Virus record (IMG/VR): IMGVR_UViG_2778261087_000005
Strand: one strand, 5' to 3'
Source of the DNA: a virus
Lineage: Duplodnaviria > Heunggongvirae > Uroviricota > Caudoviricetes
Length of the DNA: 38,097 nt
In this document: piece by piece, positions 14,862 to 24,185 of the stretch
How the letters are laid out: the number at the start of each line of letters is the position of its first letter
Numbering within the stretch: the stretch's first letter is position 1
The notes under the pieces: generated by a model
The model's database searches: none
What the model was told of the DNA's origin: nothing
What the model saw: the letters and a program-made list of their open reading frames with translations, nothing else
Made by a program: the position numbers and the translations under genes

Positions 14862-14926
14862 ATAGCATACTTTTCATGTAAATCTGATATCTTCGCCATA
14901 GCTTTGTAGGACGACAAAGAATTAAC

Positions 14927-14958
14927 AGCCTCGCCATCGTGCGGGGCTTTGTTTTTTG
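14927..14958 (+). terminator. Intrinsic terminator about 65 nt downstream of the Q-position gene (tR'-like)
   Basis: 8-bp stem AGCCUCGC/GCGGGGCU with a 6-nt loop, followed by UUGUUUUUUG. Confidence 0.55.
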
Positions 14959-15050: not shown

Positions 15051-15290
15051 ATGAAGAATTTCCAGCTTTATGTTGGCGGCACTAACAACATCACCTATCG
15101 TTACGAAATTCATAAGATGGATGATGCTTTTAGTGTTCGGATTTTTAATGTCATCGATAAAGCACACAAAGAAGTGGGGGCTAAACTCCTTCGCTCAGTT
15201 TCATCTCACGACGTAATTGATGAGTGCGTGTCACATTACAAAAGGCAAGCGCAAGGCGTTAAGGGTTTTCTTCGCTGGCTTGGATTGTGA
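15051..15290 (+). CDS. Hypothetical 79-aa protein (AT-rich cargo gene in the Q-holin interval)
   Basis: ATG 15051; AT-rich upstream region with promoter-like hexamers; own terminator downstream; no family recognised. Confidence 0.6.
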   Translation: MKNFQLYVGGTNNITYRYEIHKMDDAFSVRIFNVIDKAHKEVGAKLLRSVSSHDVIDECVSHYKRQAQGVKGFLRWLGL

Positions 15291-15308: not shown

Positions 15309-15331
15309 AGGTCGCTTAGGCGGCCTTTTTT
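15309..15331 (+). terminator. Intrinsic terminator
   Basis: AGGUCGC-uuag-GCGGCCU (one G-U pair) followed by UUUUU; near-identical to the terminator at 22737. Confidence 0.7.
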
Positions 15332-15335
15332 GTTT

Positions 15336-15608
15336 CTGCACAACAGGAAAGAGCATTTGCAGGGTTCGACTCCCTGCCGTGGGGTTGTGCCACATGATGC
15401 GAGTAATGAGTGCTCTCTCCGTTGTGGTGTAACTCAATTCCCGCTTGCGGGTTAAATGGGTAAAGTAATGCATCAACTGGCATAGCCAGCAGGGCAGGCA
15501 TGATGCTAATGCTGAACCTGAGTATCGGTTCGAGTCCGATCGCCACACACCAGAACCCACTACCTGGGATCCTTCGGCCAGAGAGCCGACATTGCCTTAC
15601 CCTCATCT
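15336..15608 (+). other. Non-coding late-leader region with two tRNA-like T-arm hairpins
   Basis: CAGGG-TTCGACT-CCCTG (15360-15376) and ATCGG-TTCGAGT-CCGAT (15524-15540) match T-stem/T-loop consensus, but no complementary 5' acceptor strand was found at tRNA distance, so no complete tRNA gene is called. Confidence 0.3.
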
Positions 15609-16934: not shown

Positions 16935-17112
16935 CCTGACCGCAGACACGCCGATCCCGGGAATGGTGGTTCCGTTCACTTGGCAGGCAAGTCTGGAGTT
17001 AAACGCTCAGCTTTATACGGCGTTGGGGCAGTGCAATCTAGATAAGGCTGGTATAAGGAAAATCGAGAATTCAAGACTTGGTTCACGAATCAGAATTTTG
17101 AAAGCTAACTAA
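16825..17112 (+). CDS. Rz1-like outer-membrane lipoprotein spanin (overlapping Rz in another frame)
   Basis: Starts inside Rz in another frame (TTG 16825 or GTG 16831); signal peptide with lipobox LLTAC; Pro-rich mature region; extends 178 nt past the Rz stop. Confidence 0.5.
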
Positions 17113-17150
17113 CTATAAGTATGATGTTTTCTCCAACATAAGGAGTGAAC

Positions 17151-17420
17151 ATGGAACGTAATAAACTGGTAAGCACTTTAAGATTCGTAAGCGCAAAAAC
17201 AGCAAACTCATTTAAATATGAAATCTATATCGATTTGGATGGTAATCCGCCTTTTGCGGTTCTTTACACGGAAGTGAAGATGGGTACCGATTTAGACCCA
17301 AGAAACTTAGGTGACCGCTATGTTTGGGTGAAGATTGATGGGTATATTCGCCTAAATGGCCCAGACATTGAGCAGTTAGAAAGTGAGTGCGAGACGCATA
17401 TTAAACAGATGCTTGTTTAA
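17151..17420 (+). CDS. Hypothetical 89-aa protein (AT-rich cargo gene after the lysis cassette)
   Basis: ATG 17151 with SD AAGGAG 5 nt upstream; own terminator; shares motifs with the 79-aa protein at 15051. Confidence 0.6.
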   Translation: MERNKLVSTLRFVSAKTANSFKYEIYIDLDGNPPFAVLYTEVKMGTDLDPRNLGDRYVWVKIDGYIRLNGPDIEQLESECETHIKQMLV

Positions 17421-17432
17421 AGCGTAGTAGAT

Positions 17433-17453
17433 GCCGCCTTCGGGCGGTTTTTT
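17433..17453 (+). terminator. Intrinsic terminator
   Basis: CCGCC-uucg-GGCGG hairpin followed by UUUUUU. Confidence 0.7.
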
Positions 17454-19856: not shown

Positions 19857-21317
19857 GTGAGTGAACAACAAGGCGAGGTTTCATTCCTCGTTAATGCCCT
19901 TGCTGATGCTATCGGGCGGCAGCGCATGCTGTACGCAGGCCAGCCGGGAAACACCAAACGCACGAAGTTGTGGGATGAGTTCGGCTATCCAAACAGTCTC
20001 GAGTTCGACCGCTACTACCGGGCATACGAGCGCAACGCGGTGGCGTTTGCCGCAGTCCATAAGCTTCTTGATTCGTGCTGGGTTGATAACCCGACGATCA
20101 TCGACGGCGACGACGGTAAGGAGTCAACCGAGACAACGGACTGGGAAAAGTCAGCCACTAAGCTGCTGAAGAAGCACTGGCCGAAAATTAAGGACGCGGA
20201 TCGCCGCAATCTCGTTGGCCGATACTCAGCATTGCTCATTCAGTTCCGGGACGGGAGGGAATGGCACGAGCCAGTCGACCGCGCGAAGGTTAAATCCCTA
20301 CGGAATATCGGTAACGGACCCATTGTTAAGCTGATCCCCGCGTGGGAATCGCAGATAAAGCCGGGTAATTTCGATACCGACACGCTTTCAGAAACCTACG
20401 GCCAGCCAGTTTCGTACAACTTCAACGAGCAGCCCGTTGGTGATGATGGCACGTACGGCCCGGTGCGCGGCGTTACCGTACACCCCGAGCGAATCATCAT
20501 CCTCTGCGAAGGCTCAGAAGACGAGAACATGCTCTCTGGCGTGCCATTCCTGCGCGCTGGTTACAACAAACTTCTCGACCTTGAAAAGGTATCGGGTGGT
20601 AGTGCTGAAGGGTTCCTGAAGAATGCCAGTCGCCAGCTCGGGATTGCGTTCGACAAAGAAACCAACATTGCGAACCTGACAAAGGCGGCCACAGACGCAG
20701 GCTACAAAGACCTGGGTGAAGCGCTTAACGACAAAGTCGCCAAGATGAACCGTGGCACAGATGCTGTCCTGGTAATGCAGGCCGGCACGCCGTCGGTGCT
20801 TTCCGTAGCAGCCGCCGATCCATCCCCAACATGGACGGTGGCCGCCAACGAGTTTGCATCCTCGATTCAGTGCCCGTTCACCATACTGTTTGGTCAACAG
20901 ACAGGGCGCCTTGCCTCCGATGAGGACAAAACAGACTGGGCTAAGCGCTGTAACGGCCGCCGCTGGGGATTCCAGTCGACGATTGTAGAGAGCGTGCTGG
21001 AGCGCTTCTGGACCGTAGGCGTCATTGACCCGCCATCATCCGGAGAGGTCACGCTGGCATGGTCTGATCTGCTCGCGCCGAGCGAAAAAGAGAAAATTGC
21101 CAACATGCAGGCAATGGCTGTTGTGGCGAAGGATACTCAGCAGGCATACGGCACACCGGCGGTGGATGAAAACGAAATCCGCGCGGTCGGCGAGCTGGAG
21201 CCTCGCAAGGTCGTTCAGCCACCTAACCCTGATGTAAAGCAAACCGATAAGGATCCGCTGACAGATGATGATGACAGCGCAAACCAGAATCGGGACGCCA
21301 ATCGTACCGCGCAATAA
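19857..21317 (+). CDS. Portal protein
   Basis: 486-aa ORF directly after TerL; GTG start with SD AAGGAG; acidic C-terminus; family (DUF1073-like) recalled, not verified. Confidence 0.7.
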   Translation: MSEQQGEVSFLVNALADAIGRQRMLYAGQPGNTKRTKLWDEFGYPNSLEFDRYYRAYERNAVAFAAVHKLLDSCWVDNPTIIDGDDGKESTETTDWEKSATKLLKKHWPKIKDADRRNLVGRYSALLIQFRDGREWHEPVDRAKVKSLRNIGNGPIVKLIPAWESQIKPGNFDTDTLSETYGQPVSYNFNEQPVGDDGTYGPVRGVTVHPERIIILCEGSEDENMLSGVPFLRAGYNKLLDLEKVSGGSAEGFLKNASRQLGIAFDKETNIANLTKAATDAGYKDLGEALNDKVAKMNRGTDAVLVMQAGTPSVLSVAAADPSPTWTVAANEFASSIQCPFTILFGQQTGRLASDEDKTDWAKRCNGRRWGFQSTIVESVLERFWTVGVIDPPSSGEVTLAWSDLLAPSEKEKIANMQAMAVVAKDTQQAYGTPAVDENEIRAVGELEPRKVVQPPNPDVKQTDKDPLTDDDDSANQNRDANRTAQ

Positions 21318-22248
21318 AGCTGACCCTACGCAGTCCTCGCGGCAGGTCAGCAGGATTTTCAACGATATCGAAGATAGGTATCTGAACATCAAGCGCAGGC
21401 TTAGGGCTCTGCTTGATCTGCGGCTGACCGGGCAGCAGCGTGAGGAGAACGCACAGCAGTCCTGGATGATGTGCAACAACGAGGGCGCAGAGCCTTTGCT
21501 GTATCAGGTCAATGCCGGTAAGTTCATCTATGACATGACCGCCGCTGAGTTGGCCGACCTGTTACAGGTTGTGCAATCTATTCTGGATGACGAGCTTCTC
21601 GATGGTGGTAGTCAGAACCTCTGGGCGATGGATTACGTCATTGCGGAGTATGATCGCGGCACGCTAAACGCCTTCACCAACCTTTCGGTGCAGTCGCAGG
21701 TGTACGCCAGCCAGACGACGCTACAGCAACTTTTAAGCAGCCCGGGCTATCTGAACCAGATAGCGTCAGCCAGGCTGACAACGTTTAGCTACTGGAAGGT
21801 TATCAGCGATACCGCCCGCGCCGATCTGACCAACATCATCACTGACGCAGTAGCGCGCGGGGTTAATCCTCGCGAAACAGCCAGCGTTATCAGTAAGCGC
21901 CTCGATGTGTCGATGTCGAAGGCGAAGAACATCGCTCAGACCGAGCAGGTCGGCGCGCTGCGGCAGGCTCAGTGGAATGAATCGGACTGGGCTGCTGACC
22001 GGCTGGGGCTGAATACCGGCCTGTTATGGCTTTCTGCGCTCAAGCTAACAACGCGAACCTGGCACGCCAGCCGCCACGGCAAGGTCTACACCACTGAAGA
22101 GGTGCGGGACTTCTACGCCGAGAACGGCAACCGGTACAACTGCTATTGCAGTCAGATCCCTGTGCTACTTAATGACGATGGCAGTATCTTCAATGAAGGG
22201 TTGGCAGATAAGCTGAAGAAAGAACGCCAGAAGTGGTCCGCTCGGTAG
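21265..22248 (+). CDS. Head morphogenesis protein (Mu F / SPP1 gp7-like)
   Basis: 327 aa following the portal; start overlaps the portal 3' end; exact start uncertain. Confidence 0.6.
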   Translation: MMMTAQTRIGTPIVPRNKADPTQSSRQVSRIFNDIEDRYLNIKRRLRALLDLRLTGQQREENAQQSWMMCNNEGAEPLLYQVNAGKFIYDMTAAELADLLQVVQSILDDELLDGGSQNLWAMDYVIAEYDRGTLNAFTNLSVQSQVYASQTTLQQLLSSPGYLNQIASARLTTFSYWKVISDTARADLTNIITDAVARGVNPRETASVISKRLDVSMSKAKNIAQTEQVGALRQAQWNESDWAADRLGLNTGLLWLSALKLTTRTWHASRHGKVYTTEEVRDFYAENGNRYNCYCSQIPVLLNDDGSIFNEGLADKLKKERQKWSAR

Positions 22249-22305
22249 ACATTTACGTATTAAATATATATAAAACAGCATTAAAATTTTTACGGATGGA
22301 AAATA

Positions 22306-22746
22306 ATGCGGAAGATTTTGTCTTGGATCGGAGGGCTCATCGCAATAACGTCGGGAGTGGTTACGCTTGTTGCTTTCTTTCTTCCACAGTACGTACCCGA
22401 GCAAACCAGATTAGCCATTGGGCGCTTTCTTGAGTTTATGAAGGTAAACCCATATGGCACTCTTATTACGATTGTGTGCTTAGTACTTTTAGCTGTAGTT
22501 TGGATGTTAAGCAGTAAAGTGATTGAGCTTACTAAAGGAACCAAGCTATTCGCCATGTGCGGATTGTACTGGAGCAAAGACAATCAGCCTTTTTGCCCAA
22601 AGTGTAAAGAACCAGCTTCAGTGCATGACGATGATGAGTCTTATCGCTGTAATTCATGCGGAAGAATTATTTTTCCCAGTTTCGAGTCTAAACAAATATC
22701 CATCACGAAAGCTCTGCAAATAGTAAATTCAAAAAGAGGTCGCTAA
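22306..22746 (+). CDS. Membrane-anchored zinc-ribbon protein (AT-rich cargo gene inside the head module)
   Basis: 146 aa; two predicted TM helices; C-terminal CPKC...x18...CNSCG zinc ribbon; AT-rich; stop codon lies inside its own terminator hairpin. Confidence 0.65.
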   Translation: MRKILSWIGGLIAITSGVVTLVAFFLPQYVPEQTRLAIGRFLEFMKVNPYGTLITIVCLVLLAVVWMLSSKVIELTKGTKLFAMCGLYWSKDNQPFCPKCKEPASVHDDDESYRCNSCGRIIFPSFESKQISITKALQIVNSKRGR

Positions 22747-22762
22747 GGCGGCCTTTTTTTTT
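22737..22762 (+). terminator. Intrinsic terminator
   Basis: AGGUCGC-uaag-GCGGCCU followed by 8-9 U; near-identical to the hairpin at 15309. Confidence 0.7.
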
Positions 22763-22790
22763 GCCAAAAACTCATCAATGAGGACCCAGC

Positions 22791-24185
22791 ATGAAACGCA
22801 ACCGCGTTAACGTGCTGACCGTCGTCAACTCCGCTTCAAACATCACCACCGAAACCATCGACGGCAAGCCACATATCGTGGTTCGCGGCATCACGCCTGT
22901 CGTGGACGATATCGTGATGAACCGGAAGTTGTACCCGGCAGCAGAAATCGAAAAGGCCTACAACACGCTTGAGCGTAACCCGATGCCGCTGGGCCATCCG
23001 AAAGTGGACGGCAAGCATGTTTCGGCGCGCGATGTCCGGGCGGTGAATGAATACCACGTCGGCGCCTGGCTTCAGAACGTCAGCCACAAAGACGGGAAGG
23101 TGACGGGCGACATGTACGTTAACCGCCAGTACGCCGAGTCGAGCGACAAGGGCAAACTCCTCATCAACCGCCTGGATGAGATGCTGGCCGGTACCAACTC
23201 CGACCCTATCCACATTTCCACCGGCCTGCTGTATTCCGGCATTGCCGCCAACGGCGAATCGAAGGGCAAGAAGTACAACGAGATCGCCACGAACATGATG
23301 TTTGACCATGTGGCGGTGCTGCTTGATGAGCCTGGTGCAGGTACGCCGGAGGAGGGCGTTGGCATCTTTGTTAACTCAGAAGGTGATGAGCAACAGATTG
23401 AAGTTGCCCGCCTTACTGATGGTATCGACTGTACCCGCGATGGCCTGCTCAACAAAACCAAATTCTTCTTCACCAATGCCTCCAACTTCTCTTTCGACGA
23501 CATCTCCCGCGCTATCAGCGACAAGCTGCGCGAGGGGGACGCCGAAGATAAGTGGCTTTGGCCTGAAACGGTGTGGCCGGACAGCTTCATCTACCGCAAT
23601 GACACCAAATACCTGAAACAGAAGTACCTCATCGATGATGACGGCAAGGCCGTGCTCGTCGGCGAACCTGTAGAAGTCGTGCGCAAACCCACTGAGTACG
23701 AGATTAAAACCAACGGAGAGAACGATCCGATGAAAGAACTGATTATCAATGCGCTGCAAGCCGCTGGTAAGCCGACTGAAGGCAAGTCCGACGCCGAGCT
23801 GATGGACGCATACAACCAGATGGCCGCCGAAAAGGCAGCGAAAACAGAAACGCCTGAAGAAAAGGCCGCCCGCGAGAAGAAAGAAGCGGACGACAAGAAG
23901 TCGAAAGAGCAGGCCAACAACAACGAAGAAATGCCCGGTTGGGCTAAGTTGCTGAGTGAGCAAGTTACCGCCATTAACAGCCAGCTCAATGCCAACTCTG
24001 ACAAAGAGAAAGGCGAAAAGCGTGCTGCAGTCAAAGCCAAGTTTCTGCTCGACGACATCGCTGTTAACGCACTCGATGGCGCTGCACTCGATGGTCTTTA
24101 TGCGCAGTGCCAGACCTCTGTCGGCCTGAATGGTGCATTCCGCCAGGTCAATTCCTCTCAATCAGTCAGCGAAATGCCGGAGTAA
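22791..24185 (+). CDS. Putative prohead scaffold/protease protein
   Basis: 464 aa; Lys/Glu/Ala-rich coiled-coil-like C-terminal region; position between morphogenesis and capsid genes; SD GAGGA. Confidence 0.5.
   Translation: MKRNRVNVLTVVNSASNITTETIDGKPHIVVRGITPVVDDIVMNRKLYPAAEIEKAYNTLERNPMPLGHPKVDGKHVSARDVRAVNEYHVGAWLQNVSHKDGKVTGDMYVNRQYAESSDKGKLLINRLDEMLAGTNSDPIHISTGLLYSGIAANGESKGKKYNEIATNMMFDHVAVLLDEPGAGTPEEGVGIFVNSEGDEQQIEVARLTDGIDCTRDGLLNKTKFFFTNASNFSFDDISRAISDKLREGDAEDKWLWPETVWPDSFIYRNDTKYLKQKYLIDDDGKAVLVGEPVEVVRKPTEYEIKTNGENDPMKELIINALQAAGKPTEGKSDAELMDAYNQMAAEKAAKTETPEEKAAREKKEADDKKSKEQANNNEEMPGWAKLLSEQVTAINSQLNANSDKEKGEKRAAVKAKFLLDDIAVNALDGAALDGLYAQCQTSVGLNGAFRQVNSSQSVSEMPE

Follow-up and report, generated by a model that had tools for sequence, protein, structure and literature searches.

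The cargo gene and its surroundings

This study concerns a small gene and its flanking signals in the IMG/VR virus record IMGVR_UViG_2778261087_000005 (Caudoviricetes), a stretch of DNA of 38,097 nucleotides (nt) that we refer to throughout as the window. The gene, which we call the cargo gene, is an open reading frame (ORF) of 146 amino acids (aa) with an ATG start on the plus strand (22306–22746). An inspection of the letters and ORFs alone, hereafter the sequence-only reading, had placed it between head-morphogenesis and scaffold genes, and profile searches bear this out. To its left lies a head morphogenesis (minor head) gene of the Mu-F/SPP1 gp7 type (21265–22248, plus strand; Pfam Phage_Mu_F 3.2e-10, phrog_758 2e-133), which carries the RefSeq name 'phage minor head protein'. 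To its right lies a DUF2213 gene (22791–24185, plus strand; Pfam DUF2213 1.6e-4, phrog_760 2.8e-200), a putative prohead protease or scaffold gene whose product also weakly matches a head maturation protease PHROG and which is followed by a head-decoration gene and then the major capsid gene. From the Mu-F stop to the DUF2213 start the distance is 542 nt. The Q antiterminator gene lies upstream, and the cargo gene is co-oriented within the late operon.

The description of the cargo gene as an AT-rich ORF encoding two transmembrane (TM) helices and a CPKC/CNSC ribbon agrees with its composition, hydropathy and cysteine alignment. Its GC content is 0.42, compared with 0.557 and 0.548 in the flanking head genes and 0.522 in the whole window. 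Kyte-Doolittle analysis of the protein gives two hydrophobic segments, centred near aa 17 and aa 60, and together with a structural model these delimit TM1 (about aa 5–26), a conserved loop helix (aa 32–47) and TM2 (about aa 51–76); we therefore predict an integral inner-membrane protein from the two hydrophobic helices. Parts rich in lysine and arginine are found at the extreme N-terminus (MRK) and in the segment after TM2. Further along are a G-L-Y-W motif (aa 86–89) and two cysteine pairs, C97-P-K-C100 and C115-N-S-C118 (nt 22594–22659, plus strand), and in an alignment of 59 sequences C97, C115 and C118 never vary while C100 is kept in at least 90%. Both CxxC knuckles of a Cys4 zinc ribbon are thus present and kept across relatives, and metal binding is predicted. 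The AlphaFold2 model built from the 59-sequence alignment, which replaced a run with 6 sequences (pLDDT 60), has a mean pLDDT of 88, rising above 93 for residues 80–140. It contains helices at residues 2–25, 32–47, 51–76 and 133–144, the last of these forming the C-terminal helix, and strands at 103–106 and 113–115 around the two knuckles (pLDDT >93).

The signals around the gene resemble those of a separate transcription unit. A putative promoter, TAGACA (22246–22251), a 17-nt spacer and TATAAA (22269–22274), can be read on the plus strand at 22246–22274, with its -35 overlapping the Mu-F stop codon; the same TAGACA-17-TATAAA arrangement is kept in the homologous cassettes of loci L006, L011, L013 and L015. 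The Shine-Dalgarno-like GGATGG (22294–22299, plus strand), 6 nt 5' of the ATG, is likewise kept in homologous cassettes. At the 3' end, sequence and folding point to an intrinsic terminator (22737–22762, plus strand) with a 7-bp stem that includes a U.G pair, composed of AGGTCGC (22737–22743), the loop TAAG (22744–22747), GCGGCC (22748–22753) and a run of nine T (22754–22762). The last two codons, GGT CGC, make most of the 5' arm, and the stop codon TAA (22744–22746) provides the first three loop bases, as the sequence-only reading had it. On the plus strand this hairpin and a second copy at 15309, described below, fold with energies of -17.2 and -13.1 kcal/mol (z -4.1 and -3.7), whereas folding of both on the opposite strand is weak (-9.4 and -6.7 kcal/mol; z about -1.2 to -1.5), since there an A.C mismatch takes the place of the U.G pair.

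The cargo gene is conserved, rare and mobile

Pairwise dN/dS between the window gene and its close homologues is 0.04–0.17, on which ground we reject the reading of the ORF as spurious; by its substitution pattern the cargo gene is real and under purifying selection. The protein belongs to no Pfam, PHROGs, NCBIfam or PADLOC family above cut-off: several Pfam zinc-ribbon models match below threshold, and the NCBIfam and PADLOC scans likewise gave sub-threshold matches only. A profile search against PDB sequences found only generic zinc fingers (DpnI, 4.5e-5), fold searches with the model returned no significant neighbour, and a literature search for membrane zinc-ribbon exclusion proteins found nothing.

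Close homologues are few. Among 5.8 billion protein clusters there are only five close matches, all full length, at 94, 84, 83, 80 and 58% identity. The exact 146-aa protein is encoded on 358 contigs and is in GenBank as a hypothetical protein (e.g. ANO78883.1), and near-identical members are found in Klebsiella aerogenes, Citrobacter and Atlantibacter, with GenBank and RefSeq proteins including WP_312330347.1. The cassette is present in 4 of 5,426 complete Escherichia coli genomes, always at 100% identity and always from cattle or food sources. Neither megablast nor tblastn against 50,697 phage records gave a match to the cargo gene or its protein. In all four E. coli genomes (L001 12001–12542, NZ_CP013663.1, and three others) RefSeq has no coding sequence (CDS) over the cassette; the locus-tag series omits RS16440, while the original GenBank record has CO57_15200, ANO78883.1. 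This gap is an annotation loss of a gene under clear purifying selection.

The four homologues with 80–94% identity occupy the same position between head genes, in head modules that have diverged to varying degree. The 58% homologue (L010, 2280–2900) instead lies in the early region of another prophage, beside Erf and single-stranded DNA-binding protein (SSB) genes and near an integrase. This relocated copy retains the ribosome-binding site, the promoter-like motif (as TAGACA...TATATAAG) and the hairpin, again with a TAA stop in the loop, and remnants of the head genes still accompany it: about 20 nt resembling the 3' end of Mu-F and about 45 nt from the 5' end of DUF2213. These remnants show that the copy was taken, flanks included, from a position between head genes by illegitimate recombination. 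In two further loci (L006, 5005–5117, and L015) the 3' arm of the hairpin is replaced, with the junction in the loop, by a tRNA-like element of about 110 nt and another terminator. The element scores 27.8 bits against the Rfam tRNA model (gathering score 29). An insertion of 54 nt interrupts its anticodon region, the terminator CCCAGC...GCTGGG-T6-ATTGCC follows it, and about 10 of the 82 related loci described next carry it.

The gap between the Mu-F and DUF2213 genes is a hotspot for accessory genes

We compared the gap between the two head genes, hereafter the slot, across 82 loci with a DUF2213 protein 85–99% identical to that of the window, the window included. Between the Mu-F stop and the DUF2213 start these loci have anywhere from 24 to 1154 nt. 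At its shortest, in L417, the slot is empty and reads TAA-CTAATCACCCCATGAGGACACAGC-ATG, with 24 nt that include the ribosome-binding site and no hairpin. Comparison with this empty site and with L002–L005, which share with the window only the hairpin and downstream sequence, delimits the inserted cassette at about 22249–22770 (plus strand), with boundaries approximate to a few bases; the sequence-only reading had proposed such a comparison with a relative lacking the insert.

All but one of the 82 loci hold something in the slot; the occupants represent at least 25 unrelated gene families, and a gene of the window's type is present in only two loci (the window and L425). For this lineage the suggestion that foreign genes are unusual at this position is therefore mistaken, whereas the view of the cargo gene as foreign and non-structural is upheld by its presence in 2 of 82 loci, the empty site in L417 and the 58% homologue in a different module. 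Several other occupants can be named. In L418 (2062–2938) the slot holds a Lit-type protease (PADLOC 8e-42, Pfam Peptidase_U49 5e-16), and the slot therefore does carry abortive-infection genes. Eight loci hold a Rap1a immunity protein on the opposite strand (e.g. L458, minus strand; Pfam 6e-19), and four an HNH_3 endonuclease (e.g. L469, 2245–2938). The occupant is a 171-aa membrane protein in E. coli A14, a 74-aa protein in Klebsiella phage ST101-KPC2phi6.1 and an unannotated 104-aa ORF in Klebsiella phage 2 LV-2017. In four loci (L432, L433, L435 and L463; about 2874–2988) the slot has only a translationally coupled, cysteine-rich mini-ORF of 37 aa, MTVYWCCCCGRTVSYQSVTALDYFPWCCRAPMLRKIQ. 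Collectively, these data show that the Mu-F/DUF2213 gap is a recombination hotspot of this phage lineage.

Several smaller observations concern the same loci. The mini-ORF MTVYWCCCCGRTVSYQSVTALDYFPWCCRAPMLRKIQ overlaps the Mu-F stop, ends just before DUF2213, occurs in 8 further loci, and in L399 stands after the hairpin. It makes up a second sub-slot, on the stretch from the hairpin to DUF2213, where other loci have a 60-aa ORF (e.g. L003, 2444–2626). In L002 (1–1016; E. coli A14) the portal-position gene, which is DUF1073 in other records, bears the RefSeq label of an incomplete 'anti-CBASS protein Acb1 family protein' pseudogene, an odd name for a gene at this position.

A hairpin of the window type is found in 50 of the 82 slot loci, and about 14 of the 82 have other stems with the same TTTTATTG tail. 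Among the slot copies with a CACG loop, at least 13 different cargoes abut an identical hairpin, and homology begins at the first stem base. Since the hairpin, loop included, is constant at the slot while the cargoes change, and homology starts at its first base, it belongs to the slot's fixed right border.

The hairpin is a common terminator type and does not link the two cargo genes of the window

The second copy of the hairpin in the window, AGGTCGC-TTAG-GCGGCC-T6 (15309–15331, plus strand; pattern search and folding), lies 3' of a 79-aa cargo gene of phrog_21608 (15051–15290, plus strand) between Q and the lysis genes. As noticed in the sequence-only reading, the two hairpins are nearly identical: they agree at 22 of 23 positions, with a single loop-base difference, and both fold strongly on the plus strand. 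At up to 3 mismatches the pattern has only these two sites in the window (0.07 expected), each of which also matches on the opposite strand owing to the symmetry of the hairpin. Comparison of the 3' flanks shows that the likeness stops at the hairpin and T-run, and the flanks are unrelated.

An exact search of viral contigs for AGGTCGC-N4-GCGGCCTTTTT found the window-type stem, AGGTCGC..GCGGCC with its U.G pair, on at least 120 contigs, commonly with an ATTGCC tail; 125 copies were analysed. A control stem with the same base pairs in permuted order was present on 8 contigs. The perfect U-A stem, AGGTCGC..GCGACC, is found on 46 contigs, many of them at the same loci, and the perfect C-G stem, AGGCCGC..GCGGCC, on at least 120, with heterogeneous tails and loops of the TTCG/GAAA type. 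An exact TATTGCC tail follows 39 of the 125 window-type copies and no C-G stem (for the latter, TATTGCT in 2 of 125). The consensus over 74 distinct contexts has an A-rich, G-poor approach, a loop biased to T-[T/A]-A-G, and ATTGCC after the T-run. Among the matches listed, the 125 copies lie downstream of 72 unrelated ORF families and upstream of 56, and the ORFs on the 5' side have a median length of 111 aa and a GC content of 0.452 versus 0.511 on the 3' side (lower in 43 of 62 pairs; Wilcoxon p = 9e-6). The hairpin is thus a specific, over-represented and coherent type, not any G+C-rich hairpin. The objection that the similarity might be that of a generic GC-hairpin consequently fails as far as genericity goes, and holds in that the likeness is a common property, not a signature of the two genes.

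The same element is also found outside phages. In a set with one genome per bacterial species, the full 25-base motif occurs at 97 places. In Alteromonas and Agarivorans it follows EF-Tu-like genes and in many Vibrio a single conserved gene (e.g. L351, L370, L373, L348), with further occurrences in Shewanella, Serratia, Ochrobactrum and Acidobacteria. The U-A variant AGGTCGC-TTCG-GCGACC-T6-ATTACC lies just 3' of the core gene tkt in 3,618 of 5,426 E. coli genomes (e.g. L498, 1495–1535). Both window hairpins belong to a common gammaproteobacterial terminator type, AGGTCGC-N4-GCG(G/A)CC-T6-ATT(G/A)CC, of which that of tkt is an example; they share the stem with U.G, the 4-nt loop and the T-run, and most slot relatives also share the ATTGCC tail; the copy at 22737 differs in its T-run of 9, its tail of GCC rather than ATTGCC, and the stop codon in its loop. 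A literature search for the hairpin sequence found nothing. The hairpin is therefore a very common terminator type that is not confined to phages. The sequence-only reading had taken the likeness of the two copies to suggest a shared origin or acquisition mechanism for the cargo gene and the Q-interval gene; with the same stem after 72 unrelated ORF families and on at least 120 viral contigs, this does not follow, because a hairpin so ubiquitous has no specific bearing on a link between the two. A private terminator link between them is rejected.

An alternative explanation that gives the hairpin a larger part is that it is a common cassette end, in which about 30 nt of homology (AGGTCGC-N4-GCGGCC-T6-ATTGCC) serves as a crossover for phage recombinases or for a hairpin-targeting enzyme, so that the two cargo genes of the window would share a mechanism of acquisition. 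Beyond the number of ORF families around the stem, the excess over the permuted control, the linkage of stem to tail and the identical CACG-loop hairpins next to at least 13 cargoes, some junctions speak for it. A 68-aa cargo is found with the hairpin in 5 different downstream contexts, the breakpoints lying directly after TATTG; the window ORF runs through the 5' arm to a stop in the loop, as would be expected if the joint had ignored the original gene end, and in 10 of 121 contexts a stop lies inside the hairpin; and an HNH endonuclease gene is found directly 5' of the hairpin at three different sites, two of them outside this slot in viral contigs. However, the loop differences among slot copies are mostly single-base and explicable by mutation alone, other stems are found in about 14 of the 82 slot loci, the breakpoints in L010 and in cluster 23 lie 15–45 nt past the hairpin, and no recombinase gene is linked to the slot. 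The element also stands at the ends of core genes on the chromosomes of distant bacteria (tkt, EF-Tu-like), which indicates a favoured terminator design rather than a phage-specific recombination site. We consider the cassette-end explanation unlikely, although it survives better than the other alternatives taken up below: the chromosomal copies favour a strong terminator that spreads with cassettes, and the junction pattern means that short-homology exchange could still contribute. Its fullest form, in which the hairpin is a portable end that swaps accessory genes among enterobacterial phage hotspots and the cargo is a stand-alone membrane defence protein, is less likely again; if true, it would provide a sequence-level mechanism for the entry of morons. 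An integron-like cassette was also considered and rejected, as no integrase adjoins the slot and the hairpin (18 nt plus T-run, compared with about 57–141 bp for attC) is terminator-like.

The cargo protein belongs to a wider zinc-ribbon family

Searched with a profile, a set of 1.8 billion representatives yielded 53 proteins at E <= 0.001, and a second profile added 99 more at E <= 0.01. Almost all are 130–175 aa long and share one layout: hydrophobic helices, G-[VIL]-Y-W-[DN], C-P-x-C, 14–20 residues, C-x-x-C, and a short C-terminal helix ending E-A-x-x-x-L. Their hosts include Thiomicrorhabdus, Sulfurimonas, Flavobacterium, Vibrio and Bacteriovorax. One member is a 127-aa protein (CKTC...CPSC) that shares only 23% identity with the window protein and yet its layout, including the tryptophan and all four cysteines. 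Prophages of E. coli, Serratia and Enterobacter carry it in the same slot, and a homologue is recorded in Citrobacter. The distant relatives in bacterial genomes are solitary genes, lying outside prophages in free-living bacteria. Among their neighbours are a TIR/SEFIR protein with an antitoxin fragment, a Dam-type methyltransferase, a GIY-YIG nuclease and Y1 transposases, which is compatible with variable or defence islands and not decisive.

Other units around the Q interval

The Q-interval cargo gene also has counterparts elsewhere, as phrog_21608 homologues in L062, L077 and L124 precede the same hairpin and a tRNA gene. In the window, the hairpin at 15309 is directly followed by a degraded tRNA gene (15332–15400, plus strand), in which a D-arm-like CAGGAAAGAGCA is joined to the T-arm GCAGGGTTCGACTCCCTGC, whereas an intact tRNA-Met or tRNA-Arg directly follows the same hairpin in L062, L077 and L024. 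ARAGORN found no tRNA in the window, nor in L006 or L015.

Directly after the Q gene is a match to the Rfam family isrJ, an Hfq-binding small RNA (sRNA), at 14877–14950 (plus strand; 54.8 bits, gathering score 37), which ends in a terminator-like hairpin (14927–14948). This segment looks like the leader transcript of the late promoter, a counterpart of lambda 6S RNA/tR', and not like an independent sRNA gene. The interval from the lysis genes to the terminase genes holds a third moron-like unit (17098–17448, plus strand). This unit comprises the best promoter match in the region (TTGAAA-16-TATGAT, 17098–17125), a RefSeq-annotated ORF (17151–17420) and the terminator GCCGCC-TTCG-GGCGG-T5-ATTGC (17433–17448).

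Discussion

The term moron was defined by Juhala and Hendrix, as a passage of 10.1101/2024.10.15.618418 relates. The terminator, the foreign composition and the insertion between otherwise adjacent genes that characterise such elements can all be recognised in the window's sequence, and the segment 22249–22770 is very probably a moron, a self-contained accessory cassette, residing in a hotspot. One AT-rich gene, served by a sigma-70-like promoter, a ribosome-binding site and an intrinsic terminator, would form a single unit that was dropped between two head genes which a related phage has side by side. In lambda, Q-modified RNA polymerase reads through intrinsic terminators in lytic growth. 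As Q-modified polymerase ignores such signals, a terminator within the late operon would be no hindrance to lytic growth, and its main effect would be in the lysogen, where it would stop transcripts from the cassette promoter from entering the head genes.

Our overall reading, to which we assign a probability of roughly 60%, is that this is a classic moron acting for the lysogen at the membrane, most plausibly in exclusion or defence. TAGACA-17-TATAAA would drive expression in the lysogen, and the protein would sit in the inner membrane, its N- and C-termini both cytoplasmic, an orientation suggested by the positive-inside rule and by the cytoplasmic location of Cys4 zinc sites; the ribbon and C-terminal helix would then lie just under the membrane. 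There the protein may act alone for the lysogen, possibly by blocking DNA entry at the inner membrane, or by sensing a phage component and disturbing the membrane. Phage exclusion or defence as the specific function is a tentative proposal. We favour exclusion or abortive infection because Lit is found in the slot, two divergent members of the superfamily occupy it, and there are precedents (HK97 gp15, P22 SieA and Rip1) for single small membrane proteins of prophages that act in this way.

The morons of lambdoid phages, as defined from HK97 and HK022 (examples are HK97 gp15 and lambda bor and lom), have a similar genetic design. They too consist of a single AT-rich gene with a promoter-like element and a terminator, and they likewise lie between late genes that are adjacent in a relative, within a Q-dependent late operon. 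HK97 gp15 is described, in a passage of PMC10883804, as a predicted inner-membrane protein encoded in the structural-gene region that excludes superinfecting phage. The window protein has no sequence similarity to gp15, Bor or Lom, its slot lies between the Mu-F and DUF2213 head genes rather than between tail genes, and, unlike those three proteins, it has a predicted cytoplasmic zinc ribbon. P22 SieA is a prophage-expressed, multi-pass inner-membrane protein of about 160 aa that acts alone, and it comes in several sequence types with one and the same function although they share less than 30% identity with each other (PMC10883804), a situation paralleled by the two 23%-identical zinc-ribbon types in the slot studied here. 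SieA differs in having three predicted TM segments, no zinc ribbon and a location in another genome region, and it has no detectable homology to the window protein. More generally, PHROG, Pfam and structure searches gave no sequence or fold homology to the superinfection-exclusion proteins SieA, HK97 gp15 and T4 Imm. Rip1 (ring-interacting pore 1; PDB 9oox) is a small prophage membrane protein encoded between terminase genes (PMC13434031). It is not among the PDB profile matches at E <= 1 and shows no homology to the window protein, and no zinc ribbon is described for it, so that any likeness would be confined to the design. Lit of prophage e14 (Peptidase U49) has a homologue in the same slot, in L418, but as a 291-aa metalloprotease it is unrelated to the window protein.

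Several results weigh against this reading. A stricter consensus promoter scan does not list TAGACA-17-TATAAA, whose -10, TATAAA, lacks the T at position 6. None of the PADLOC defence models matches the 146-aa protein significantly, the best E-values being 0.01 (HEC-08, over 24 residues) and 0.057 (2TM effector). Defence is not the slot's only cargo, as Rap1a is an immunity protein against an anti-bacterial toxin. The wider family was not confirmed in IMG/VR viral contigs in a search with a tighter alignment, and guilt by association is weak because the family's neighbourhoods are heterogeneous.

Two other roles for the protein appear improbable, each somewhat more so than the cassette-end explanation of the hairpin. 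The protein could serve its own phage in lytic growth, expressed from the Q-dependent late transcript, by setting lysis timing, blocking late superinfection or countering a membrane-associated host defence. The position of the gene inside the late operon, 3' of Q and co-oriented, would suit such a role, as would a small two-helix membrane protein, which many lysis regulators are, and the cassette's own promoter is a prediction. Yet the gene has its own terminator and promoter-like motif, both of which moved with it to the early region, it is dispensable, being missing from 80 of 82 relatives, and Lit and Rap1a, found in the same slot of relatives, are genes that benefit the lysogen. A lysogenic conversion function unrelated to phages, such as toxin immunity, modulation of envelope stress or a host-interaction factor, would instead fit the Rap1a-type immunity gene in the same slot of 8 relatives, the cattle or food origin of the four complete genomes with the cassette, and the occurrence of the wider family in free-living bacteria outside prophages. 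Here it is the protein itself that argues to the contrary, as it has neither the signal peptide nor the periplasmic domain usual for immunity proteins, its Cys4 ribbon is expected to be cytoplasmic, and no toxin gene is associated with it. Finally, despite the position between head genes and the missing RefSeq CDS in four E. coli genomes, there is next to no chance that the ORF encodes a conserved head protein with a structural or assembly role, which its distribution over 2 of 82 head modules and the existence of an empty site rule out, or no gene at all, given strong purifying selection, full-length homologues down to 58% identity and GenBank and RefSeq proteins elsewhere.

The moron interpretation places a previously uncharacterised gene in a kind of element that is already known, and nothing about it is categorically new. 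What it adds is, first, a newly defined protein family, for which there is no curated model and which numbers roughly a hundred or more sequence clusters in Proteobacteria, Flavobacterium and Sulfurimonas; its members combine two membrane helices with a G-x-Y-W-D motif, a Cys4 ribbon and a short helix. Second, terminator identity alone cannot link cargo genes, and the cause of the over-representation of one hairpin at the ends of phage accessory genes becomes a testable question. Third, the head module of a common enterobacterial prophage family contains a well-defined accessory slot and, because this slot holds Lit and Rap1a, its unnamed occupants are good candidates for functions in lysogen benefit or defence.

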